Below the pieces are notes generated by a model. It searched no databases, was not told the DNA's origin, and saw only the letters and a program-made list of their open reading frames with translations. A DNA stretch of 64,000 nucleotides from positions 1 to 64,000 of the IMG/VR virus record IMGVR_UViG_3300050343_000190. One strand, given 5' to 3'. Positions 1-35,976 of the stretch are shown here, in pieces. The position numbers and the translations under genes were made by a program. Origin of the DNA: a virus. Within the stretch, counting starts at the first letter, position 1, and each line of letters starts with the position of its first letter.

Positions 1-3000
1 AGTGTCGTTGAAAATACTATTGAGTTGCCTCAACACTTCTTTGTAACAGGAGAGGAAGTTGTATATTCTTATGATGTTCTTAATGAACCAATTGGAATTG
101 CTTCTACAGATGTTCCTGGAATTGGAGTTACTGATATATTACCATCTAAATTGTTTATCATCAAAGAGGATGAACTACTTGTAAGAGTTGCAGCCAGTGC
201 TACAGAGGCATTGTCTTTAATTCCCAACACCTTTTAATATTACAACTCTTGGAGTTGGATCCGATCATTATATAACCGCAAAGAATCAGAATCCTAAGAC
301 TCTGATCACTATTGATAATATGATCCAATCTCCTATTGTATCTACTGCTACTACAACGGGTGCTGGTAATACTTTTACAACTGTTCAAGATGTTCTTACT
401 TTAACTGAGCAACCAGAAAGATTCTTTAGTGGAGATTTTCTTCAGATTGACGATGAAATCGTAAGAGTATCCATTGTTGGATATGGCGGTTCTGATAATG
501 ATGTATATGTTCAGAGGCCAGTTTTAGGTACACTACTTGCAGATCACGTACAATTTGCAAAAATTACTAAGGTTATTGGTAATTACAATATTATCGATAA
601 TACACTTAGTTTTGCTGAGGCTAGTCTCCATATGGAAAAACTCCGATAGGATCTCCAGATAATCCTCCAGATCAAAGAGATTATAGTGGAATCACTACTT
701 TCTCTAGATTTAGTGGAAGATCGTTCATGAGAAATGGTCAAGTTGATTCTACAAATGATCCATACTACAAAAACTATATCTTTGACGGTATTGAAGATCA
801 ATTCACAGGAATTAAGAGTTCTTTTGAATTAAAAGTTGGTGGTCAAAGTGTTGATGGATTATCGGCAAGTAATGCTATTATTACAGTGAATGATTTATTC
901 CAATCACCTAAGGTAGATCAACTCAATGTTGATATTGAGGGAAACTACACTTTAGAAGAAGACAGTGGAGTAACAAATATCATCTTTGATGAAACATCTT
1001 ATGATAGAGAAGATGATATCATTATTAAAGGTCTTCCTGTTGGCGGTAGGATCGTCTCTGTTGGGTCTACAAAGGGATTTGGGTATCAATCACTAGTATC
1101 TGCTGCTGGAACTGCTACAGTGTCTTCTGCGGGAACCATTAGTGCTATTAACGTCTCTAACGTTGGTGGTGGATATCGAACTGGTATTCAAACTAATATT
1201 AATGTCTACATTCGTGAAGAAACAGTAGAGGCATCTAGTAAAGTTGCGATAGGAACTGCTCTTGTTACTAGAGGAAGAGTTACTGGAGTGGCTGTTACAA
1301 ATTCTGAGGTCTTCTACGCTCCTAGAGATATTTCTAACGTTGGTTATACTTCCATAACAGGTTTAACAACGGTTACAACATCTACAGCGCACGGATTATC
1401 TAAGGGGTAATGATATTGTTCTTTCTGGAATCGCAATGACTTGCGATTATGCTCTACCACTTACCGTAACAAATGCTCAATATGATAACATAACTGGAAT
1501 TATGACTGTTACCACTTCTGTGGGACATGGTTATAGCACATTCGGCAAACTCAGTGAAGTTATTCTAACTGGACTTGCATTTACTTGTGCATATGATGGT
1601 GGAGCGGGAATTCTTACTCACCCAAGAACAACAGATCCTGCATATAACGGTACAGGAGTAATTTCTGTTAATAGTGCTACCGAATTTGCTGTTAATGTTG
1701 GAGTTTCTACCACCGTTAACTTCTACACTAGTGGTGGAACTGCTCAGGGTATAATTATTGCCCCAAGACTCAACAATAATTCTGATAGTCAGTCAGATCC
1801 CTGCTTCGCAGTTTGTGAGTGTAAGAAGAGTTAATAGTGATACTGAGTTTGAAGTTAATACTGGTATTTCTACATTAGGTCACTTTTATGCTAGAGGTGG
1901 TAAAGTTGCGAAGTATCTAACTGTTGATTTTGATGATCCCTCTTCCATACGATAATCTGGCGCTACAACATATTCTACAACTTCAATCGGAGATACTGGA
2001 GGAAGATTTGCAAAGATTAGTGTTGTAGTTGGTGAAGGATCTAGTGTAACTGATTTTGATATAAAAAATGTTGGATATGGATATGAAATTAACAATGTAC
2101 TAACAGTTTCTGTTGGTGGAACGGATGGTATTCCTTACATGTATCACGGAAGATTCGCTGATGCTGGAAATCTTCTTACTTTTAACAGACAGTTCCTTGT
2201 TAAAGAAGAGCTGTTGGATATGCAACTGCTACATATCCTTCCCTACTTTCCAATCCAGATTATGATCAAACTAAGTGTGAAAGAGATACTGGGATTTATT
2301 GTTGATGCGTTAGCAAATGATCTCTTCTTTGGAGGAAACTTTAATTCTGTTGCAGCAGGAAATAAGTATTGGAATGGACCTCTAAATTATGTAACTGGAG
2401 AAACAATAGAAACCATTGCAACTTATGATTATCTTGCTGGTATTTCAACATTCGTTATAAACAATCAAATTCTACCTACTTCATATCAGGGTATTGCAGT
2501 CTCTGTTACCCAATTTACAGATGCTTCTATTGATTATGAAAATGGATCTTCATACACTCTTGATAGTTGTTCTGATGTTGCAACTTCAATTTCCAATCTA
2601 GTTGGAATTGTTACTACAATTATTGGTGATGGTGCAGCATATGCTCCACCAGTGATAAGTCCTTCTGCTAAACCAACACTTGCTTTACCAACAACATTAG
2701 ACTTTGATGAATTCAACTTCTATATTACTAAGACCCAAACTGATCAATTTACAGGATGGACAATTGGAGATCTTCAGGTTGTTGATGATATCAGTCCTCA
2801 GTTTAATGGAGATGCAACTAGATTTGCTATTAAATTTGATGGAGTTAGAACATCAATTAAAGCTGCTAAAGGATCTTTGATTGATGTTCAAGCAACGCTT
2901 CTAGTCTTTATTAATGATATTCTTCAAGTTCCTGGAGAGGCATATTTATTCCCAGGAGGTAGTACACTTCGCTTCTCAGAAGCCTCCAAAACTAGGAGAT

Positions 3001-4391
3001 GTCTGTAAAATTATCTTCTATAGAGGAACTGGAGATGTTGATGTTGAATTTGTAGATATTCTTGAGACTGTTTCTCCTGGAGATATCCTCACAATCGGTA
3101 GTGAGGATATTAGCCCCTAAAACAAAAAGATAGATCAGTTAAATCAGTTACTTCTACTGACTCGGTTGATACTTATCTTTATGGTGGTGTTGGAATCAGT
3201 AATGATCCATTTGTTGAGAGACCAGTTAATTGGTGTCGTGCAACCACTGATCTCATTATCGATGGTGAAGAAGTTAGCAAAGCAAGAGATATTTATGAGG
3301 CAGCAATTCTTCCTCTAACTAATATCATTTACGATGTTGGTACTGCAAGTACACAAATTTGGATTGAAGGCGCAAGAACTTTCTTCGATAATGCGAGAGA
3401 AAATTCAGAACTGAATTGGACAACTACCGTTGATATTATCGATCAAGATGAAACAGAAGAATCTATAGCAACTGCTTCAGTTACATCTGGAATTGTTACT
3501 CAAATATCCCTTACCAATGCAGGATCTGGGTATTTTAACATTCCTACAATATCTATCGGAGCGCCAAAAGATGATAGTGGAACTCAAGCAGAAGCTAATA
3601 TCATTATCGCATCTGGTAAAGTAGCAACCATTAATATTTCTGTTGGTGGAACTGGATATGATGATAATAATCCACCACCAGTTTTAATTTCACCACCAAC
3701 TCCAAAATCAGAAACAATATTTAGAGTTGACTTTGCAGGAGACTTTGGTGAAGTTATTGGAGTCGGAACAACAACAATTGGAGCAGGATCTTCTCAAGGT
3801 CTCATCTTTGAGTTTGCTATTCCAGAAAACTCTCCTTTGAAAGATGAAACAATTGTTGGTACTGGAAATACAATTGATTATAGTGGAATTGGAACAGGTG
3901 ACTTCTTTACTATACGAGATTCCACGGTCGGAAATGCGACAACAGTTGGATATGGCGTTACTTCAATTGAAATAGATGGAGTTGACTTGGTTGAAGGAAA
4001 TCAATTTATTGATAGTGTATTCCAAGTTCATGACATTGTTCCAGGAACTCCAATCGTTATATTCAGTGACGATTTTGTTGCAAGTTTAACAAGACTTGGT
4101 TCTTATTCTGTTGGATTAGGAGTTTCTACTACAGTCGCTGATGGTGCAACACTGATTATTGAAAATAACACTCAGGTTGTTACTGTTGTTGAAGATTATT
4201 CACAACTTGGACTTTCTTCATTCCTCTCTAGACAAACATTTGCAAACTTCTCTTGGGGTAGACTAGATAGTATTTCTAGACCATTCCCTGAAGCATATGA
4301 TATTAAGAGAGATAATGGAATTATTGGTATCGAAACATCACCTATTTTGAGAAGAAAGAATCCATTAAAAGCCTCCAATTATCTTTCATAA
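1..4391 (+). CDS. gp7: Baseplate wedge initiator gp7-like giant protein, C-terminal part (5' truncated, split by several indels)
   Basis: Consecutive + strand ORF fragments 25-4391 read as one protein across frames. It ends with FSWGRL...GIETSPILRRKNPLK, typical of cyanophage gp7, and lies directly upstream of gp8. Confidence 0.75.
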
Positions 4392-4416
4392 ATAACTAGA
4401 AAAGTTCTGTATTTAA

Positions 4417-5970
4417 ATGTCCGCAATTATAACTGATCAACTTAGAATTTTGAATACGCAAAATTTTCTAGATCTTGCCGAAGATACGGAAAATAATGCT
4501 TTCTATGCTTTTATAGGACTTCCAAATCCCACAGACGTTGTTACTAACTGGGATACGTCTCCTCCTGCTCCTAAGGATTCTTTTGAGCAAGAGTTTGACT
4601 ACTGGGACACTATGATTGCACTGAAGAAGATATCTTCAGTGGATATTCGTCAAGTAATTAAAAAAATTACTTGGAATTCTGGTACTACTTATGATATGTA
4701 TCGCCATAATATTAGTAGAACAAACTTAGCAAAACCATCAAACGCTACAAGTCTTTATTCATCAAACTTTTATGTGATGAATAGCGACTTTAGAGTTTAT
4801 ATTTGTCTACAAAATGGTTCTGATCCAGAAAATATAGAGGGAAGACCATCTCTTGATGAACCTTTATTTACTGATCTAGAGCCACAGATTCCTGGAGATA
4901 GTGGTGATGGATATGTATGGAAATATTTGTATACTATCAAACCCTCTGATATTGTAAAATTTGATTCTGTAAATTTTATTCCTGTTCCAAAAAATTGGGA
5001 GACTGATTCTACATTTGATTCAATTAGAGATAATGCAGTAACAAGTGGTCAGATTAAAATTGTAAAAATAACAAATAGAGGTGCTGGTCTAGGAACTGGT
5101 GGAGTAACATACACAAATATTCCAATCAGTGGTGATGGGGAAGATGCGGAATGCACTATTGTCGTCAATAACGACTCAAAGGTTGACAGTGTAACTGTGT
5201 CGGATGGTGGAGAAGGATATACTCATGGAAGAGTCGATCTTTCAAATTCATCTATTATTTCGGGAACAACAATTCCTGAATTTGAAGTTATTATTCCACC
5301 ATCAGATGGACATGGCGCTAACATTTATAAAGAAATGGGATCGACTAACATTTTAATGTATACCCGCATTGAAAATGATTCTGATAATCCAGATTTTATT
5401 GTTGGAAACCAAGTTGCTAGAGTGGGAATTGTTCATAATCCAACAAAAGATGGATCTACAGAGTTATTAACTGATGATAAAGTTAGTGCTGTCTATGCAT
5501 TAAAACTTACCGGTATTGGATATAGTTCGGCATCTTTTGTTTTTGATAGTGAGGTAACTCAAGAAGTCGGTTTGGGAAGTACTGCTGTTGGTAGAGTAGT
5601 TTCTTATGATGAAATCACTGGTGTTTTAAAATACTGGCAGGATAAGGCTCAGGTTGGATTTAATACTGATGGATCTCAAAAAGTTCCAGAATATGGATAT
5701 ATACAACATAGATTTACATCTGATACTGATGATGGTGGAACATTAACTATTAACGGAGGATCAGTTGAACTATCAATTGATGCAAACTATAGCGGTATAA
5801 CTACCTCTATAAATAATACTACATATAACCTGGGACAAAATTTTACAAACGGAACTGCTCTTCCAGAAGTAAAAAAATACTCAGGAGACATCATATATGT
5901 CGATAATAGACCCGCGATCACTAGATCAAAGAGTCAAAAAGAAGATATTAAGGTCATTTTGCAATTCTAA
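4417..5970 (+). CDS. gp8: Baseplate wedge subunit gp8
   Basis: Intact 517-aa ORF with MSAIITDQLRI, YVMNSDFRVYICLQNG, DGYVWKYLYTI and C-terminal YVDNRPAITRSKSQKEDIKVILQF. Confidence 0.92.
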   Translation: MSAIITDQLRILNTQNFLDLAEDTENNAFYAFIGLPNPTDVVTNWDTSPPAPKDSFEQEFDYWDTMIALKKISSVDIRQVIKKITWNSGTTYDMYRHNISRTNLAKPSNATSLYSSNFYVMNSDFRVYICLQNGSDPENIEGRPSLDEPLFTDLEPQIPGDSGDGYVWKYLYTIKPSDIVKFDSVNFIPVPKNWETDSTFDSIRDNAVTSGQIKIVKITNRGAGLGTGGVTYTNIPISGDGEDAECTIVVNNDSKVDSVTVSDGGEGYTHGRVDLSNSSIISGTTIPEFEVIIPPSDGHGANIYKEMGSTNILMYTRIENDSDNPDFIVGNQVARVGIVHNPTKDGSTELLTDDKVSAVYALKLTGIGYSSASFVFDSEVTQEVGLGSTAVGRVVSYDEITGVLKYWQDKAQVGFNTDGSQKVPEYGYIQHRFTSDTDDGGTLTINGGSVELSIDANYSGITTSINNTTYNLGQNFTNGTALPEVKKYSGDIIYVDNRPAITRSKSQKEDIKVILQF

Positions 5971-5976
5971 GAAATC

Positions 5977-8900
5977 ATGCCCCAGGAACTAAATCTTAAC
6001 GTTTCTCCTTATTATGACGATTTTGATCGCGATAATGATTATTATCGCGTTCTGTTTAAACCAGGGTATCCTGTTCAGGCAAGAGAACTTACGACTATGC
6101 AGTCTATGCTGCAAGGTCAGTTAGAGAAATTTAGTGATCATTTCTTTAAAGAAGGGAAAGAGCTATAACTGGTGGAGAAATTCAATATTATGAAAAATAT
6201 CCATGTGTTATGGTTGATGATTCCTTCAATGGAAAGTCAATCTTAGAATATGCTGCGGATTTATTAGACGAAGTTATTGTTGGCGAAAGTTCGGGAATTA
6301 GAGCAAGAGTCGATTCATATTTACCGGGATCTAGTTCTGAAAGGGGATTTGATACTTATTATATTACATATCTAAGTTCAGATTCAGGATCTTCTGAGTT
6401 TACTGGTTTTATTCCAGGAGAAAACCTATTAACAGAAGATGGAATTCAGACTACTAATAACTTAGCGGATGAATATGATTCTGATGATCCAGATGCAGCA
6501 ATTCAAGAAAATTTAGAAAACTTAATTGTATTTGGAGAGAATGCTCCATTTGCAAGATGTGTTGAAGAAAGTCCAAATGAAGTTGGATCTGCAGTTCATA
6601 TTAATGAAGGTGTTTACTATATTAGAGGACACTTTGTAGAGTCTGAGGAAAAAACCTTACTACTTGATCAGTATGATGATAAACCATCATATAGAGTAGG
6701 TTTAATTATTACAGAAGAGATTGCAACACATTTAGATGATGATGCTCTTCTTGATAATGCACAAGGATTTTCTAACTTTACAGCACCAGGTGCAGATAGA
6801 TTACGAATTGAAATTGATCTAGTAAAGATTGACCTTGATGAAGACGACGATGTAGAGAATTTTGTTGAATTAATGGTCGTTCAAAACGGTCAGATTGTCA
6901 ACAATAATAGAAGCAGACAACAAACAGATAATGAAAAATACATTGCAGAAAGAGTTGATGATGTTGCTGGAGACTTCTATGTAGAGCAACCAGAGGTAGA
7001 GATTTTAGAAGCTTCTAAATGATAAAGAAGGTAATGATGGGTTATATGAACCTGGAGAACTTACTTTACAGGGATCAGAACCTACAGATGATATGGGAAT
7101 CTATAAGATTTCCCCATTTAAAAAGCCTATGTTAATGGGTATCAAATTGAAATTAATACACCAACATATCTTGAATTTGATAAACCAAGAGAAACTAAAG
7201 AGTTTGAAGATCAGCAGTTAGCATATAACTCTGGACCAACATTAGCAATAAACAGAGTATTTGGATATCCAACTTTAGGAATTCAAACAAGTTTTTATAT
7301 CACTCTTAGAGATGAAAGAGTTGGTGGATCTCAAGCAACAGCTGCCGGTAAAGAAATTGGTGTTGCTAGAGTTTATGATTATGAATTAGAAGACGGAACA
7401 TATGAAAGAGAAAATTTAGACTTAAACACTTGGGATCTTACATTATATGATGTTAGACCCTATGTTGAATTTGAACTGAATGAGCCAGTAAAATTAACAA
7501 CTCCTATTCATATTAAAGGAAAAGCAACTGGAGCAACTGGACACCTCAGATTTGATGTTAATAATTCTGGTATTGCTACCGCTTATGATGTAAGAGGTAG
7601 ATTCAACGTAGGTGAAAAGTTAATCTTTAATGGTGTAGAAGAAAATACAAGAGTCGTAAAGGATGCAACAGAATATGGAATTAATAAAGTAAGATCTATT
7701 CATGCAGTAAATGCAAATGGAACTTTCTTTAGTGCAGATACTATACTTGAAGATAGCTTCTGAGGATATTCCAGAACCAGGTTTAAATGTAAGTATAACT
7801 GGAGCATCTAGTGGTGTTTCTACGGTAAGTGTTGCAAACTTCAATCTAGATAAAGTATTTGATGTTGGTGATCTTGTATCATATACAAATTCTGGAAACC
7901 CAGAAATTGTAACCTATAATAAAGTTTCTGCTGTAGCTATATCTAAAACAAACATGAGACTGGAGGCGATTACTTCAGTAACAGGAATCTGTGCTGGTGC
8001 TCTCCCAACTTCTGCAGTACAGACTACAGATTTCCAAAAAATTGAAACAGAAATTGAAACTTCTGACGATAATACTCTTTATACAGAGTTTCCAAAAGAT
8101 TTTGTTGCGAAAGTAAATCTTGAAGATTCTACTATTGTCGTTAGAAAAACATTTGATATCAATATTACTGATGGTGCAACAAATGCTATACAATCAGGAA
8201 CTGATTTTACTTTCCTTCCTTTCACAGCAGGAAGATATGTCCTAACAAGAAATGATGGAACTATTGAAGAACTGACTGATGATAAAATGACCTTCAATGG
8301 GTCATCTACACAATTAACCATAAAAGGACTTGGATCTAATACTGCTGGTGTTCTTGTAGCAACTTGCAACAAATCTAATAACACATCTAAAGTAAAAATT
8401 AGAAATAGAATTGGATCTCTTATTATTGATAAATCAAGAGTTCGTCAATCTGGTGTTGGTGGAACCACATTAAACGATGGACTGACATATGGAAATTATC
8501 CATATGGTACTAGAGTACAGGATGAAGAGATTGCTTTGATGAGACCCGATGTTATCGAGGTCTTAGGAATTTTTGAATCTGATAATACTGCAGAACCAGA
8601 TGTTAAGAGACTAGAATTTAGCACCTTCTCTGGCCCTACTCAGTCTACCGATGATTTAATTATTGGTGAAAGATTTGAAGGAGCAACTAGTGAAGCTATC
8701 GGTATTGTAATTGAAAAAATAAATGATACTACTATAGGATTCATACCAGCAAATGATGATGCATTTGATGAACCTGGTGAGAAAATTACATTTAAAGAGT
8801 CTGGAGTAACTGCAAGTTTTGTAAAAGAAACTGGATCAGATTTAAACATTACAAATAAATTTGATTTAGCAGATGGATTTGAAGACACAATATATGATTA

Positions 8901-11900
8901 TGCTAGACTTGTAAGAAATAAAGATGCTAAAGAACCTAAGAGAAAATTAAAAATTATATACGAGTTCTGCACATATGATGCTGCAGACACAGGAGATATC
9001 ACAACGGTAGATTCCTACTCTAATTTTGACTATAAGGATATTCCAGAAACTGGAGACCTTAGACATAGTGATATTATTGATATTAGACCAAGAGTTGATT
9101 TTTATAATGTAACAGAAAATTCTAGATCACCATTTGAATTTTTTGGCAGATCTTTTGATGGTGATGGAAACTCTGCTGATTTTATTCTTGCATCAGACGA
9201 AACTATCACACTTGATTACTCAATCTACTTAGCTAGAGTTGATAAAATTTTCTTAGATGAAGCAGGACAGTTTCACAATGTAGAAGGTCCTCCATCAGAA
9301 AATCCAGCACCTCCTGGAGCAAAGGATGATTCTATTGAAGTTGCTCAAATTATTCATCCACCATTCCTTGAAGATGTAGAAGACGCCAGTATTGAATTAG
9401 CGGACCATAAACGCTATACAATGGATGATATTGGAGATCTAGAAGATCGTATTAAGCAACTTGAGTACTATACATCTTTAAACCTTCTTGAGCAAAGTAC
9501 TGCTAATATGAAGGTGACTGATGGTAATGGTCTTAATAGGTTTAAGTCTGGATTCTTTGTTGATGATTTCTCTGATGCAGAAAATCAACTAAAGGTAACA
9601 ATTCTTAAGAACTCTGTAGATACTGAAGAGGGTGAATTAAGGGCTGCTCCATATACTACTCAAATTGACTTAGAGTTAGGAACATTCAGCGCACTAGGTA
9701 TTGGAACTGACGTTATTGATTCTGTTACTCTTGATCCAGAATTTGATACCAATATTATTGGTGAAAATATCAAAATGACTGGTAGAGTGATTACTCTCGA
9801 TTATGATGAGCAAATTGAGATTCATCAACCATATGCAACTCAAAACGTTCCAGTTAATACTTTTGCTGATATATTTTATGAAGGTGAATTAGAACTTCAA
9901 CCAGATTCTGACCTTTGGGTGCGCCAGAACTTGGGTGGAAGAAGAGTAAAAGATTCAAGAGGTAAATTCTGGTTCACTAGACGGCAATGGAGAAAAATGA
10001 GATGGAATCCTAACTTCGGTTGGGGTGGTGTTATTTGGAAAGATTGGAGACATCATTGGAAAGGTAATCTTCCTAAGGGAGGGCGTCGTCGTGGTGGAGA
10101 ATATAGTGGAACAACTGCTAACCGTAGGAGGAGAAGGAGAAGAAGAAGAATTAGAGCAGCTGGAGGAGTCTTTAGACGGAAAAAGAGATTAAAGATTAAT
10201 AGAAGAAGAAAGCATCGGTTTAAGATTAAGAGAGGTGGTGCTAGAAGAAAGGGATGGGGTAAGAGAACTATAAGACGTAGATTCTGGGCAAGAAGAGTAC
10301 GCCAAGGAAGACGCTTTGTATCCGTAGCCGTCCGTAAGTGGATGAGAATGCGGAACATTCAATTCAAAGCGAAGAAGATGAAACCCAACACAAGGGTTTA
10401 CGCTTTCTTTGATGGTGTTCCAGTAATGAAAACCATTACTCCTAAGCTTATCGAAGTTAAGATGATCAAGGGAACGTTCCAGGTTGGTGAACGTGTAACT
10501 AGTGCAAGAAGGAGAAGATTCCGTAGAAGAGGATCTATTGCAGTTAAAGTAAGAAGGAGAAGAATCAGAGTTAGATCCGTTAGAGGATGGCGTTGGGCAA
10601 TGAGATTCTCTGGACGAGTTTGTCCAATTAATCATAAAGAAGGTCCAGTTAATACTCCATTAAAAGTATATGGTCAGAACCCATATACAAAGACGGCGAT
10701 GCCTACAAGTTATGCATCCAATTCTACGATTCTGAATATTGATACTTTCATCATGTCCCTCAAACAAAGAGGAAGATATTGGGGATTTATTAACCGTAAG
10801 ATGCGTCTAAAAGGACGTAAGAGTAAAAGCCGTTTGTAGAGTTGTTAATAAACGACTTATCACAGACGGTCAGGGCACTGTTGCAGGTTCATTCTTCCTT
10901 CCAGCAGCAGATGGTGTGAGAAAGAGAAAATTTGGTTATGCATTTAGTGCTGGTAAAAAAACATTTAGATTAGTTGACTCCAAAACTAACTCTGATGATA
11001 AGGCAGAACTCACCACAATGGCTGAGGATGAATTTACATGTACCGGTGGTGGTCTTAAGACAAGATATCACCTTCGGAGATTGAAAGTCAGAAGAGGACG
11101 TAGATGTACTCGCAGACCAAATGCAGAGGTCGGAAGAAGAAGAGTACTTAGGAAGTGTAGAGGTGGTCGAGCACGTCCAGTAACTCCCGATCCAGGAGAC
11201 GAAGAAGAATCAGCACCAATCAGTCCCACTCCACCAGGAGGGACGAAAGCCACCGAGACACGTTGACCCACCTAAAGGTCCTAAAGTGCCGAAGGATCCA
11301 CGTCCATGTCGGCGTAAAGGAAGGGGTAAGAAAAGGTGTAAACCAGGAGGCAAGACGCCACCACCCAAGAAGAATAGACCTAAAGTCAAAACTGCTAAGG
11401 TTAAATACGTCTTTGATAAGAAAGGAAAAGCACTTCCTATTTGGTATGTTCCATATACCATTAAAAAGGGTAAAAATAAGGGAAAAACTAGATACCTTAA
11501 CTTTAACCAAATTAGAAGACTAGGTGGTAAAAAGGATGCTAAGAGAGCATTCAGGGAGTTTGGATACCCTCTTCCACCTAAGAATTACCCAGGTAGAGGT
11601 AAACCAGCAAGACCAACTGGAGGTAAAAAGAAGACAACTACCATTGCGATTAAACAAAATCGTAAAGGTGTGATGAAGGTTATTGATACCTCCAAGAAGG
11701 CAAGGAAACTCAAGAGAAAGGGTAAGAAGTCTAACGTCAGGGATGTTATTAAACCAGGCGATAAGGATTATGGCTATTACAACAAGGGTAAACCCCAACT
11801 CTGGAAGTATGGTGCAACACTTCTTGCAACACAAAACAAGAAAGCAACTAAAAAAGTTACTAAGAGAGGTAAGAAGAAGTTTGAGAAACGAGGATTCCCT

Positions 11901-30897: not shown

Positions 30898-33800
30898 ATG
30901 TCAGATCCCCAAATTCGTTTAAAAAGGTCAACGGTAGCTGGTAAAATTCCAACTACATCACAACTTGCTCTTGGTGAAATAGCTGCTGTAAATGCTTTTG
31001 ATGGAGAAATATTTTTAAAGCAAGATACAGCAGGAGTTGGAATTGCAACTCGCGTCATTAGAGTTGGCGCTGGAGGATCTTTAGGTAAAACTATTTTTGT
31101 ATGTAAAGAAGGTAATGATGATAATACTGGTCTAAATGAAAAGGATGCAAAACTAACAATCAAAAAAGCTGCTGCAGAGATAGCAGAAATTTTTGATACT
31201 GTTAAAGTTTATCCTGGTGTATATGTTGAAAATAATCCTATTTTACTCGATAAGAACGTATCAGTAGAAGGTTTAGAATTAAGAAACTGTATTGTTTCTC
31301 CAGGAAATGCAGATAAAGATTTATTTCATGTAAATGATGGATGTCATCTAACTGACCTTGGATTTACAGGTTCGATGGACGCAGGTTCTGCTGCAGTCGC
31401 GTTTAGACCACTTGAAAGCGTAGCATCTGATAGATATTTTGACGCAGCAAGACTTATTCGCGTCAACTCAGATTTTATTGCAAGAGAAGCAGTCGGATTC
31501 CTAACCAGTGGATATAGTGGATATGCTGGTGGCCACCTTGAACAAGATGGTGCAAATGCTCTTGAGGCTAACTTAGATTATATTGCTCAAGAAGCAGTTG
31601 GTTATATTACAAGTACTGACTATAAAAATCCAGCATTTGTTGTTACCGATGTTGGTGGTGCTGCAGATGATCCACAAAACTGTAGAGATGATATTAAAGA
31701 TATACTTAAATCAGTTGCATACGACTTAAAGTCTACTGGTAATTTACAATCAGTAGGAGCAGCATTATCATATTTCACAGGTGGAGCTCTTGCTCATGTA
31801 ACGGGAACAGATACAAATGGTTATAGTATTGCCGATGCTACTGTCGCTGCTATTGATCGCGCTGCTGGTATCTCAACATATGTAATCAACCAGAGACCAT
31901 GGGCTAGTGTTGGTGCTGGTGGTACTACAAATGTTACTGGATTTACTTACGATAAATTAACTGGTATTGCAACAGTCACTTCTGTTGGTCATGGTGTAAC
32001 AACTGGTGATATTGTTGAACTAGAAGGAATTGAATTTACCTGTCCTGGAGGCAGCGGAGTTACAACCAGTATTTTCCCAGATGGTTCAAACGGAGAATAC
32101 TTTACAGTAACAGAATATGTTGGAGTAAATACTTTCAAAACAAATGTTGGTATTTCTTCAATCTCACATGCATACGATACTGGTGGAACAGTAGAGAAGT
32201 ACGTTAATTATTCTACCAATAAAACTCAAGCAATTGATCCTACAAGAAGAAACAAGAGAATCTTATATGATAATTCAAATAATAAGATCGTTGTAGGAAC
32301 AGGATGGTGTACTGGTGTAGGTAATAGCATCAGTTATCTTACAGGAATTACATCAAGTGCTATTGGTGCTGGTTCTTCCTCTGGTGTTGTTGGAATTATT
32401 ACTGGTATCAATCTCGATACATTCCGTTGCTCAAGAGACGTAAGAGATATTCTCAAAGCAGTTTGCTACGATATTACAAGGGGTGGATCTACAAAAGTAG
32501 TTGCTGCTGGTAAGACCTACTTTGATGAGTCATTGGCTCAAATTGGTATTTCCTCCTTTGCTGCTGCTACTCTCAGTAAATCTCCATTTGATGAAGTAAC
32601 ACAAACAATCCGTGCAGTCGATTATGCACAAGATATTATTCGTTGCGTAATCAATAACACAACATGGGGTGGAGTTTCTATCGGATACACAACTCCAATT
32701 AGTGATATTGATTGGGATACTAATACTGGTCTTGCAACTGTTACAACCAGATTTAATCACGATCTATCTAAAGATGATGGTATTGAAGTTACTGGACTAG
32801 GATTTACATGTCTTCCAGGATCTCCTGGAGATGAAACTACAATTCTTACTGCAACTTATGATAGTGTTACTGGTATTACTACGTTTGAAACATCAACGAA
32901 TCATGAATTAAAGTCTGGTAATGGTATCATAGTTACTTCTACAACTGGTAGTGATTTCAATAATCTGATTGTAGATGATAGTATGTCCTCTACTACATTT
33001 ACAGCAAGAGTTGGAAATGGACTTGCAGCATCTGCGGGTTTAACTGGAACGATTAAGGTTCAGCGTTACTACACTCCAGAAGTAGGAATTAACTCTGCTG
33101 TTTACGATAGAATCACAGGATTTACTACAATTGGATTTACAGACAGTGGTTCTAGTAGTTCAGATAATGATCCGGCATATATTGATAATGATGGTAAAGT
33201 TCGTCTTGAGAATTTGGTATTCCAGTGCGACTCTGGTGGTGGTCTTTCGACTCAGTATTTCCCCTCAGGTGCTCTTGGATTTGACTTCCCAGTAGAAAAA
33301 GTTGGTGGAGACAGATATCAAGATTCTGCAAACTTAATCGCTGGTAACAAACTAGAAATCACAGATAAGGCTCTTGCGAATATTGCTATTCTTCATCCAG
33401 ATTTCTTCTATCCTGGAGATAATCAGATTACAACAACATCCAGATATAAGGATGCATATCGTCTAATCCAACAGAACAAAGGTGAAATTGTTGGTGCAGC
33501 ATATACAAATGCTCAAGTAACATATCCATCAATCGATTCTACTAAGTTCAGAAGAAATCTGAATTACCTAGTAGATGCTGTTTCTACAGATATCTTCACC
33601 GGTGGTAATAACTATACCGTTTCTGTTACTAACAAATACTTTGATAATGGAGGTTCTCTGATTGGAGAAGGTGATGATTCTATTGCAGGTGTGACTGAGG
33701 AAACAATTATTGCCTTCAATGAAGCAAAATCTTTAATGAAGCAGGCGATTGCTAATCAGTTATCAACAAAAGATACAACAGTTTCTGGTGGTTCTAGTTA

Positions 33801-35976
33801 CTTTGGTGATGGAAGTCCTGCTATTGGTAATAGCGAAACTTACTCTTGTAGTGATGTTCAAGCATCTATCGATACACTTGTAAGCATTTCTACAGAAGCA
33901 TTTGGTGTTGCTAACTTAAATGTTGTTAATGGTCTTACTATTAACTATGGTAACTTCCCTGCTGGTGAGTTTAAGTGTAGAAGAGATATTGCATATGTTG
34001 TTGATTCTATCATAGATGATTTAAGAACAGATGGCAATAAGAACATTAGAGAGACAACTAGAAAGTACTTTGATGCTACTGGGGCACCTATTAGTGGTGG
34101 ATTGATTGGAGAAGAATCTGAATCTGTAACAGGATTTACATCTATTGGAGAATATGCAAAACTTGCTATCAACAATCTCCTCAATTACAAAGATTACACA
34201 ATTACCGCAGATCCAGCTGTAGGAATTAATTCCTCTCCTTCTGGTTGTGCCGACATTCGTGCTTCTATTGATAGTCTTGTCGGTATCATAACCACTCATG
34301 TTGGTGCAGGAAATCTAAACAACTTCCCAACACTTTCTATCGCAAGTTCTATTACAGTTAATACTGGTATTTCAACATTAGATCATACTTACGTTGGTGG
34401 TGGTAGTGCTTTCGTTGGAATCACAACAACCGTATTCCCAGATGGAACATTTGGAAATATCTTTAACGTTGATACGATCGTTGGACCCACAACGTTTACT
34501 ACAAACTTTGGACCTAGTGATATTTCTCACACATATGCTACAAATACTGGTAACATCCTGAAGTTCCAACCATTTACTAAGAACTCTGGTTATGCTGGCG
34601 GACAAATCAAAGATGAGTCTATTCAATATGATCCTAGAGTTAATAGTAACACAAGCCCTGCTGGATGTAAGAACGTTCAGAGTGCTATCGATACTGTTAT
34701 TGGTATTGTTACCTCTATTGTTGGTGGTGGAATTACTGCAATTCAAGGTCCTGTAAATCCAACTGGTATTACCACAAGATTTGAAGGATTTGATGGTGTA
34801 GGTTACAACCCAGCAGAAGGTGAGGATGCCGATCTAAACTTTAGTCCTGGATGTGGACAGATCTTCAAAGGTCCATATGTAAGAAACTGTACAAACTTTA
34901 TCTTTGATAGCATCGGTCTGAAGATCGATGGATTTGCTGCAGAACCTGGAGATGAGGATGAAATTGGTGTTCAGGGTTCCATGTCGGTTGACTCTTACAC
35001 GCAGTACAACCAGAGAGGAATTGGTGTATCGATTACAAACGGATCTTATGCTCAGTTGGTGTCTATCTTCACAATTTGCTGCGACGAAGCAATCGTAACA
35101 TCAAGTGGTGGTCAGTGTGACTTGACTAACTCTAACTCTTCCTTCGGAAGAATTGGTCTTATCTCTAATGGAATTAGTGATGCTACAACTAAGTCTATCT
35201 ACAGACAGACAGGAAAGGTTGTTAATGCTGCATCCGCTAATGATATTACATTAGAAGTAAGTGGTCTTGGAACACAAAGACCTTATGATGGTCAGGTGTA
35301 TTATATCGATCAACTTTACTATTCATTAGCAGAAATTTCAATCACTAATGGTGGATCTGGATATAACATTCCAAACGATGCAATCGTTACAATTGAGTCT
35401 CCAACAGGACCAAATGGAATTTCTGCACAGGCAATTCCTACAGTTGAAAATGGAGCAGTAACAGCAGTTACTCTTATTAACACTGGTACTCAATATGAGA
35501 CAAGAACACCAAATGTAAGCATTGCAGCGCCTCCTGGAGGTGGTACACAAGCAACTGCGGAAGTAAGTAAGAGTGATCCTTTATATTATAAAGTTGGTGC
35601 TGCAACCTTCCCAAGAGCAGGTATTTCAACTATCACTGCTGTTGCTGGGTTAAATAATGATGTAGGTGCTGGAGCTACTGTTTATCTAAGTCGCCAGAGT
35701 TTACAAATTACATCTTCTCACTCGTTTGAATATGTTGGTGCAGGTAATGATATCTTCACCGCAAGGCCTGGTGTTGGTGGTGTAACCATCCAAGAAAACG
35801 AGGTTGTTAAAGAAGAAGGTGGTGAAGTTATTTTCACATCTACTGACCAGGCAGGTAACTTTAGAATTGGTGATGGTGTTACCATCAACCAAGCAACTGG
35901 AACGATTACAGGTAGAACATACCTTAAATCTCTATTCAACAACGTAACACCATTCATTCTAGCACTAGGAGATTAA
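30898..35976 (+). CDS. 1692-aa tailspike-like protein: pectin-lyase-type beta-helix frame with a large insert of phycobiliprotein-like helical domains and small beta domains
   Basis: N-terminal IRLKRSTVAGKIP..LALGE. Beta-helix cap IFVCKEGNDDNTG..AKLTIKKA..VKVYPGVYVE. The helix resumes at GPYVRNCTNF..YTQYNQRGIGVSITNGSYAQLVS. Ends STDQAGNFRIG. Confidence 0.75.
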   Translation: MSDPQIRLKRSTVAGKIPTTSQLALGEIAAVNAFDGEIFLKQDTAGVGIATRVIRVGAGGSLGKTIFVCKEGNDDNTGLNEKDAKLTIKKAAAEIAEIFDTVKVYPGVYVENNPILLDKNVSVEGLELRNCIVSPGNADKDLFHVNDGCHLTDLGFTGSMDAGSAAVAFRPLESVASDRYFDAARLIRVNSDFIAREAVGFLTSGYSGYAGGHLEQDGANALEANLDYIAQEAVGYITSTDYKNPAFVVTDVGGAADDPQNCRDDIKDILKSVAYDLKSTGNLQSVGAALSYFTGGALAHVTGTDTNGYSIADATVAAIDRAAGISTYVINQRPWASVGAGGTTNVTGFTYDKLTGIATVTSVGHGVTTGDIVELEGIEFTCPGGSGVTTSIFPDGSNGEYFTVTEYVGVNTFKTNVGISSISHAYDTGGTVEKYVNYSTNKTQAIDPTRRNKRILYDNSNNKIVVGTGWCTGVGNSISYLTGITSSAIGAGSSSGVVGIITGINLDTFRCSRDVRDILKAVCYDITRGGSTKVVAAGKTYFDESLAQIGISSFAAATLSKSPFDEVTQTIRAVDYAQDIIRCVINNTTWGGVSIGYTTPISDIDWDTNTGLATVTTRFNHDLSKDDGIEVTGLGFTCLPGSPGDETTILTATYDSVTGITTFETSTNHELKSGNGIIVTSTTGSDFNNLIVDDSMSSTTFTARVGNGLAASAGLTGTIKVQRYYTPEVGINSAVYDRITGFTTIGFTDSGSSSSDNDPAYIDNDGKVRLENLVFQCDSGGGLSTQYFPSGALGFDFPVEKVGGDRYQDSANLIAGNKLEITDKALANIAILHPDFFYPGDNQITTTSRYKDAYRLIQQNKGEIVGAAYTNAQVTYPSIDSTKFRRNLNYLVDAVSTDIFTGGNNYTVSVTNKYFDNGGSLIGEGDDSIAGVTEETIIAFNEAKSLMKQAIANQLSTKDTTVSGGSSYFGDGSPAIGNSETYSCSDVQASIDTLVSISTEAFGVANLNVVNGLTINYGNFPAGEFKCRRDIAYVVDSIIDDLRTDGNKNIRETTRKYFDATGAPISGGLIGEESESVTGFTSIGEYAKLAINNLLNYKDYTITADPAVGINSSPSGCADIRASIDSLVGIITTHVGAGNLNNFPTLSIASSITVNTGISTLDHTYVGGGSAFVGITTTVFPDGTFGNIFNVDTIVGPTTFTTNFGPSDISHTYATNTGNILKFQPFTKNSGYAGGQIKDESIQYDPRVNSNTSPAGCKNVQSAIDTVIGIVTSIVGGGITAIQGPVNPTGITTRFEGFDGVGYNPAEGEDADLNFSPGCGQIFKGPYVRNCTNFIFDSIGLKIDGFAAEPGDEDEIGVQGSMSVDSYTQYNQRGIGVSITNGSYAQLVSIFTICCDEAIVTSSGGQCDLTNSNSSFGRIGLISNGISDATTKSIYRQTGKVVNAASANDITLEVSGLGTQRPYDGQVYYIDQLYYSLAEISITNGGSGYNIPNDAIVTIESPTGPNGISAQAIPTVENGAVTAVTLINTGTQYETRTPNVSIAAPPGGGTQATAEVSKSDPLYYKVGAATFPRAGISTITAVAGLNNDVGAGATVYLSRQSLQITSSHSFEYVGAGNDIFTARPGVGGVTIQENEVVKEEGGEVIFTSTDQAGNFRIGDGVTINQATGTITGRTYLKSLFNNVTPFILALGD

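Follow-up and report, generated by a model that had tools for sequence, protein, structure and literature searches.

The stretch of DNA considered here, referred to throughout as the window, is the first 64 kb (64,000 nucleotides) of an 86-kb IMG/VR virus record, IMGVR_UViG_3300050343_000190, for which CheckV estimates a completeness of ~45%. The window opens within the 3' part of a gp7-like baseplate wedge gene, and this part carries a module of about 170 residues that has a predicted phycobiliprotein-type fold and a putative bilin-attachment motif. Further copies of the module lie in a tail-fibre-like protein encoded downstream. The features on which the analysis turns are these:

1..4391, + strand: gp7-like baseplate wedge gene, 3' part (~1,460 codons), recognized by frame hopping, intact orthologues and a match to phrog_2885.
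2151..2666, + strand: predicted phycobiliprotein-fold module (bilin-binding-globin type) of the two-Cys subfamily, a single contiguous copy in gp7 (profile match, E 1.7e-36).
2207..2208, + strand: spurious 2-nucleotide insertion that moves the frame from 3 to 2, absent in the IMG/VR relatives L002-L005 and in contigs from four runs of four studies.
2273..2287, + strand: K-C-E-R-D codons, with the CxRD motif, whose Cys (2276-2278) falls on phycocyanin alpha-Cys84; the codons stand in frame 2 owing to the artefacts.
2291..2291, + strand: spurious 1-nucleotide insertion that returns the frame to 3, absent in the same relatives and in contigs from the same four runs and four studies.
2568..2570, + strand: second Cys, one residue ahead of the module's last helix and the hallmark of the two-Cys subfamily.
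30898..35976, + strand: intact tail-fibre-like protein of 1,692 amino acids, recognized by tblastn, profile matches and PHROG tail fiber families.
31543-31917, 32401-32706, 33439-33921 and 33919-34344: substantial module copies in the fibre protein.
31432-31521 and 34639-34764: partial module pieces in the fibre protein.

The gp7 portion in this record is interrupted by at least 10 spurious insertions, with about 10 frame changes, and its identity was established by comparison with relatives from IMG/VR (L002-L005 at 84-91% amino-acid identity, and L006 at 55%). In L002-L005 the gene runs on in one open frame for more than 2,690 amino acids within the stretches compared; it is also intact in L006, and the complete gp7 of G001, the record to which L006 belongs, has 4,225 amino acids. 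Residues 8-1943 of the L003 orthologue match phrog_2885 (baseplate wedge subunit) with E=0. The genes that carry the module in P-HM1 and P-HM2 are annotated gp7, and gp8 comes next in both. A megablast search of window positions 1-4400 against GenBank phages gave no match.

In the record as deposited, frame 3 reads ...LVKEELLDMQLLHILPYF..., and frame 2 between ~2207 and ~2291 reads AVGYATATYPSLLSNPDYDQTKCERDTG; the two Cys codons, at 2276-2278 and 2568-2570, are both TGT. A DNA alignment with L002-L005 shows that the window has two additional nucleotides at 2207-2208 and one at 2290/2291. Contigs from four public runs, each from a different study, match window positions 1500-3500 with 0 substitutions, and all four omit the nucleotides that the window has at 1799 (1), 1938 (1), 1960 (2), 2207 (2), 2291 (1), 2983 (1) and 3114 (2). 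The 31-mers of this region are present at a fraction of 0.88-0.89 in 20 public runs from 13 studies. Because both the independent contigs and the intact relatives omit the insertions, the corrected frame is the natural one, and the indels at 2207 and 2291 are artefacts of this record that carry no biology. A pseudogene and real (programmed) frameshifting were considered as causes of the indels, and both are ruled out by the identical, insertion-free sequence in independent runs. A preliminary description of this DNA had proposed the corrected frame between ~2206 and ~2292, which the four relatives and the contigs of four studies bear out. It had also presented the domain as hidden by compensating indels; this is a property of the record and not of the phage, since the natural sequence reads straight through, and the indels only flag poor sequence quality at the record's 5' end.

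Over the first 8 kb, 15 indels separate the window from L003, all of them insertions in the window of 1-6 nucleotides each, at positions 226, 621, 1401, 1799, 1941, 1959, 2207, 2290, 2994, 3114, 6159, 7013, 7120, 7751 and 7941. Several adjoin AGCT or CTAG, as in [AG]AGCT (twice), [AGAT]AGCT and [CTAGT], and the seven that fall within 1500-3500 appear in none of the independent contigs. Given that the large open reading frames (ORFs) at 28-40 kb, including that at 30898-35976, are unbroken, the insertions at the gp7 end look like a local sequence-quality problem near the contig end. The runs that share window positions 1500-3500 date from 2017-2025 and are viral or seawater metagenomes, apart from a single named organism; the genotype of this region is either remarkably widespread and stable, or that of a shared laboratory or reference strain.

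The gp7 copy of the module in the window spans positions 3-156 of a 158-position profile, and its intact orthologue lies at L003:5848-6381 (P0003, 178 amino acids). A HMMER search over 1.84 billion cluster representatives detected 1,030 proteins at E<=1e-3, many of which are giant (2,000-6,400 amino acids), with up to 35 matched stretches. Two independent profiles, A2 (an alignment of 38 single copies) and A3 (15 sequences from the two-Cys subfamily only), were searched against 177,635 distinct PDB sequences. With A2, 33 matches were obtained at E<=10, and all but one are phycocyanin alpha chains (32/33, best E 3.4e-4); positions 5-60 of the profile pair with phycocyanin alpha residues 38-104, with the common pattern KC.RD.G...GG. 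With A3, every match is a phycobiliprotein (32/32, best E 1.6e-3), and the matches extend to phycocyanin alpha, allophycocyanin, phycoerythrocyanin beta, phycoerythrin alpha and beta, and smURFP. When the 38 members of A2 were searched singly against Pfam, ten matched the phycobiliprotein family PF00502 (best E 2.8e-5); any other Pfam family was matched by a single member at most. The window's fibre protein scores 15.3 bits against PF00502 (E 0.02), below the 22.2-bit threshold.

A template-free AlphaFold2 model of P0003, computed from a phage-only alignment, has a predicted local distance difference test score of 87.4 and a predicted template modelling (TM) score of 0.87. Its helices comprise residues 4-16, 18-32, 35-38, 44-64, 68-79, 88-107 and 145-164, with a long loop at 108-144, and the globin-type fold of phycobiliproteins (helices A, B, E, F, G and H) is present in the predicted model. 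In a Foldseek search of the PDB, the listed best matches are phycobiliproteins (E 2e-3, TM 0.60-0.65 over ~168 columns), the exception among them being an entry titled 'Bacterial fluorescent protein' at rank 37. A VIA-align search of 48,161 representative chains places phycobiliproteins or ApcE at all of ranks 1-8 (Z 15.8-12.5), the best match having a Z of 15.8 and a root mean square deviation of 2.4 A over 149 residues; next are a bilin-binding photocobilin (Z 11.6), globin-coupled sensors (~11) and RsbR (10.7). Residue 1 of the model pairs with phycobiliprotein chain residues 29-31, and position 5 of A2 pairs with phycocyanin alpha residue 38. With its start at phycobiliprotein residue ~29-31, the module would therefore lack the N-terminal X-Y helices, the pair that in phycobiliproteins builds the alpha-beta monomer. 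As far as homology and fold alone are concerned, the sequence profiles and the predicted model make it very probable that the module is a diverged phycobiliprotein homologue, with a globin-type fold that lacks the X-Y helices. A phycobiliprotein-like domain had been proposed in the preliminary description, together with profile searches and structure prediction as the means of checking it, and the profile searches, the reciprocal Pfam matches and the predicted fold all agree with that proposal.

The hidden Markov model alignments of both A2 and A3 to phycocyanin alpha chains place the Cys of the family on alpha-Cys84. Over 1,785 copies from 149 carrier proteins, with ~30% mutual identity, this Cys and the Arg are each conserved in 96% and the Asp in 99%, and an Asp 14 residues past the Cys and a Tyr 30 residues past it are each conserved in 99%. 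The putative bilin-attachment motif is under strong purifying selection, as judged from these alignments. In phycobiliproteins, the Cys of CXRD forms a thioether to the bilin, and the R and D hydrogen-bond the chromophore; BBAG-1/3 globins that have the CXRD motif attach bilins lyase-free (PMC10151467).

The second Cys is present in 77 of 816 full-length copies (9.4%), always two residues before the profile position at which the last helix starts. It is distributed in an all-or-none manner by protein, being found in 10 of 146 carriers and there in every copy. It is invariant in the 15-sequence A3 alignment, and both gp7 copies of P-HM2 and the window copies belong to the two-Cys subfamily, which is that of marine T4-like phages. 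Its location before the last helix presumably resembles that of the second bilin site of beta subunits. The alignments of A3 to phycobiliproteins end short of the second Cys, the longest of them (to phycoerythrin beta) stopping at profile position 121 and chain residue 159; because no alignment reaches the second Cys, its match to a beta-155-type site is topological only. The preliminary description had stated that the gp7 copy keeps both Cys sites, and this is right for the Cys at 2276, which falls on the alpha-84 bilin position within a conserved CxRD, whereas for the Cys at 2568 the equivalence extends no further than topology.

The four substantial copies and two partial pieces in the ORF at 30898-35976 confirm the earlier claim that a second virion protein also carries the module. 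Two of these copies have CxRD, as CSRD and CRRD; one has CRDD, and in one the motif is lost (FRRN). The pieces look nested and not merely set in tandem. At 31432 lies an N-terminal helix piece (profile 3-32), and copy A (profile 5-110) regains its Cys and last helix only at 32308, past a beta-rich insert. No last helix lies near copy B (profile 31-115), which is at 32401; beyond it are two complete copies and then an orphan last helix (profile 115-156) at 34639. Some copies may have been inserted into others, in the loop that leads to the last helix. The same layout, with one gp7 copy and four to six fibre-protein pieces, is found in the window phage and in G001. More copies had been suspected upstream in gp7, but a scan of that region added none, and the complete gp7 of G001 holds exactly one. 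The metagenomic fibre proteins P0004-P0009, of 4,000-6,400 amino acids, contain 21-35 tandem one-Cys copies; these giant carriers match cyanophage fibre PHROGs, and the C-terminal region of phrog_3442 is common to them and the window's fibre protein.

A tblastn search with the domain over 50,697 GenBank phage records matched 351, all of which are cyanophages (by name, 279 Synechococcus, 59 'Cyanophage', 12 Prochlorococcus and one 'Marine'). The matched genes are annotated as gp7 or baseplate wedge, tail fiber, short tail fiber and virion structural protein, and among the matches listed there are 1-9 module places per phage record. A search for close copies in cultured phages found none that are close; it returned 67 records, all cyanophage, at <=43% identity. 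Structural matches in BFVD are tail and structural proteins of cyanophages and uncultured phages, none of which is named as phycobiliprotein-like. In the cellular genomes of 185,579 species, a search that reaches close relatives only found no close relatives of the single domain. Most cultured cyanomyoviruses have 3-5 module matches, with higher numbers in Syn1 (8), S-PM2 (11) and S-RSM4 (13), and the copies are spread across two to four giant ORFs. The module region of P-HM2 lies at NC_015284 82604-83941. As the module is found in many cyanophage virion proteins and its copy number is variable, it behaves as a mobile module of the virion; the suggestion that it is a mobile module present in two separate proteins is thus sustained both in this phage and across cyanophage tail, baseplate and structural proteins. 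No account of phycobiliprotein-like domains in the virion proteins of cyanophages came to light in a literature search of incomplete coverage.

Directly 3' of gp7, in the window and in the relatives, is an ORF of 517 amino acids (4417-5970), which is gp8 by position only. The gene that follows it in the window (5977-10839) is split into pieces of 63, 270, 42 and 1,042 amino acids, and the breaks fall together with the insertions at 6159, 7013, 7120, 7751 and 7941. In the relatives, one ORF of more than 1,000 amino acids begins immediately after gp8, and in P-HM2 the same slot is occupied by a gene for a 'VrlC protein'.

Two bodies of earlier work bear on what the module may do. The gene cpeT is found in 12/16 cyanomyoviruses, where its role is unresolved, and the role of pebS and pcyA has been called a mystery (Sullivan et al., PMC3037559). 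When 17 reference cyanomyovirus genomes were searched with the module profile and with Pfam CpeT, the module was found in 14, being absent from P-SSM2, S-SM2 and S-SSM7. CpeT was found above threshold in 12, all 12 of which have the module, and the three module-less phages are without it; P-SSM7 and S-ShM2 have the module and, for CpeT, sub-threshold candidates only. The module and cpeT genes are non-adjacent in the reference genomes, and CpeT was not found in the window's own record, itself only ~45% complete. As to light, P-HM1 and P-HM2 show no adsorption in the dark, while P-SSM2 (less well) and P-SSP7 adsorb in the dark (Liu et al., PMC6628666), and for S-PM2 the account of Jia et al. (2010) that is given in PMC6628666 is of light-dependent adsorption that is independent of host photosynthesis. 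Module matches number 4 in P-HM1, 5 in P-HM2 and 11 in S-PM2, with none in P-SSM2 or in the podovirus P-SSP7.

The reading preferred here is that the gp7 module is a diverged phycobiliprotein homologue in a T4-like marine cyanophage and that it binds bilin in the infected cell, which, on the sequence comparisons and the model, has about an even chance of being right as a whole. The module would be made in the infected cell with host and phage bilins at hand (through HO, PebS and PcyA), and a bilin would be bound covalently at the Cys of CxRD, either unaided, as in BBAG globins, or via a lyase. For the second Cys, the phage T-type lyase CpeT may be the enzyme, and the baseplate and fibres of the virion would be pigmented as a result. 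The bound bilin might even be the virion's own photoreceptor, with light shifting the conformation of gp7 or the fibres and so licensing adsorption, although this extension is unlikely. If true, it would explain the light-only adsorption of S-PM2, P-HM1 and P-HM2 independent of host photosynthesis, and it would put the substrate of cpeT, and partly of pebS, pcyA and ho1, on the virion and not on the host antenna.

A number of observations weigh against bilin binding by the module, or against parts of this reading. By sequence, the similarity extends over helices A/B to E only, which make up the first ~56 of the ~158 positions, and its E-values are borderline. P0003 alone has no Pfam match at E<=10, so that the PF00502 gathering threshold (22.2 bits) is not reached, and a phmmer search with it against PDB sequences likewise gave nothing at E<=10. 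The preliminary description had called the gp7 copy the closest to real phycobiliproteins, but it is other members of the family and the fibre-protein copy that match Pfam at this level. To our knowledge, the near-invariant second Asp, the Tyr and an Asn in helix A are not phycobiliprotein signatures, and together with the R and D they could form a purely structural polar network. Some copies in the window's fibre protein are without an intact motif (FRRN at ~33520, CRDD at 31681), and the motif is therefore not required in every copy. T-type lyases act at the beta-153/155 site rather than at position 84, and the second Cys is only a topological candidate for the former. The association with cpeT (Fisher one-sided p 0.015, or 0.006 if the P-SSM7 candidate is counted) ignores kinship and is drawn from few genomes, and P-SSM2, S-SM2 and S-SSM7 may be a single clade. 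P-SSM2 has pebS and ho1 yet no module, so phage bilin genes are not solely for the module. The correspondence between the module and the dark-adsorption pattern, in a small and confounded sample with kinship ignored, is a lead and not a test.

Several of these points suit an apo structural module, in which a captured phycobiliprotein or bilin-binding globin would have lost pigment binding and would act as a rigid helical spacer or decoration in the fibres and baseplate. Here C, R, D, D and Y would be an internal polar or disulfide network that serves folding or inter-copy contacts. This is a possibility to be taken seriously, albeit a somewhat doubtful one. The extra invariant Asp and Tyr, which are not known as phycobiliprotein features, the loss of the Cys or Asp in some copies, and the arrays of giant fibre proteins, which with as many as 35 tandem copies look like a structural repeat, are all in keeping with it, and the loss of the X-Y helices shows that the domain is outside its phycobilisome context. 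The ligand-free case is nonetheless hard to make for one Cys, exactly at the bilin position and beside R and D, that 96% of ~1,800 copies retain at a mutual identity of ~30%; nor would a purely mechanical role predict the restriction to cyanophages and the association with cpeT. It is improbable, in turn, that the module binds some other ligand (a tetrapyrrole, a metal or a host surface ligand) or has a redox- or thiol-sensing Cys, as a receptor-binding or sensing unit unrelated to light. The globin fold does accept ligands of many kinds, the structural matches that rank next include heme sensor globins and a non-heme domain, that of RsbR, and the module is located in host-contacting proteins. 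Against this, CxRD is specifically a bilin motif, no heme ligand of the proximal-His type was seen, although no search aimed at one was made, and a bilin best suits the restriction to cyanophages, in which bilins are made by the hosts as well as by the phages' own genes.

Homology itself would be mistaken if an unrelated helical bundle had come by convergence to share the short KCxRDxG...GG motif with phycocyanin alpha, which is very improbable. The E-values of the two profiles are borderline, only ~56 positions are aligned by sequence, and middling structural Z-scores are common for helical bundles. Against this, both profiles match essentially only phycobiliproteins among all the PDB sequences searched, ten members reciprocally match PF00502, the template-free model fits best on full-length phycobiliproteins, above all other globins, and the CxRD motif is on the same helix and at the same place as in phycobiliproteins.

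The lone cpeT and the bilin-synthesis genes of most cyanomyoviruses constitute one of two cyanophage puzzles that have stood for 15-20 years, and the module gives both puzzles a concrete and cheaply testable candidate. A pigmented virion would be the first known case of a phage particle with a light-absorbing cofactor, and it would extend the bilin-binding globin superfamily (phycobiliproteins, BBAGs and photoglobins) into the structural proteins of viruses. Even an apo module would clearly exemplify the capture of a host antenna protein and its multiplication as a fibre building block.

Among known systems, the module is most like the phycobiliproteins (PF00502), with which it shares the predicted globin-type fold, CxRD on the same helix, and a similar sequence from helix A/B through the loop to helix E; phycocyanin alpha is the best sequence match, and phycoerythrin and allophycocyanin chains are the best fold matches. 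It differs from them in its lack of X-Y helices, in a loop of ~37 residues before the last helix, and in its own invariant Asp, Tyr and Asn. Phycobiliproteins are also free phycobilisome subunits of 160-180 amino acids, whereas the module is embedded, singly or in arrays, in giant virion proteins. The BBAGs, photoglobins and photocobilins (PMC10151467) are likewise phycobiliprotein paralogues outside the antenna, some with CXRD. BBAGs are genetically associated with bilin-pathway genes, to which the co-occurrence of the phage module with phage cpeT, kinship ignored, would be a possible counterpart. BBAGs are, however, small cellular proteins encoded in bacterial gene clusters, and the phage module exists as a domain within structural proteins; phycobiliproteins outscore photocobilins in both the sequence and the fold searches, and the comparison with BBAGs is by description and not by sequence.

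ApcE offers another parallel: this large protein of several domains includes a phycobiliprotein-like one that has a loop insertion, and ApcE chains are among the top fold matches to the model, with Z of 12.5-13.3. Unlike ApcE, which as a component of the phycobilisome joins allophycocyanin discs, the phage module lies in the baseplate and fibres and is without X-Y helices. Finally, the gp7 carrier resembles the baseplate wedge protein gp7 of T4, in that it matches a cyanophage baseplate wedge PHROG and the gp7-gp8 order is found in P-HM1 and P-HM2. The gp7 of T4 is much shorter, whereas that of cyanophages has ~4,200-4,450 amino acids and is mosaic, and among the 50,697 phage records the module is found in cyanophages only.

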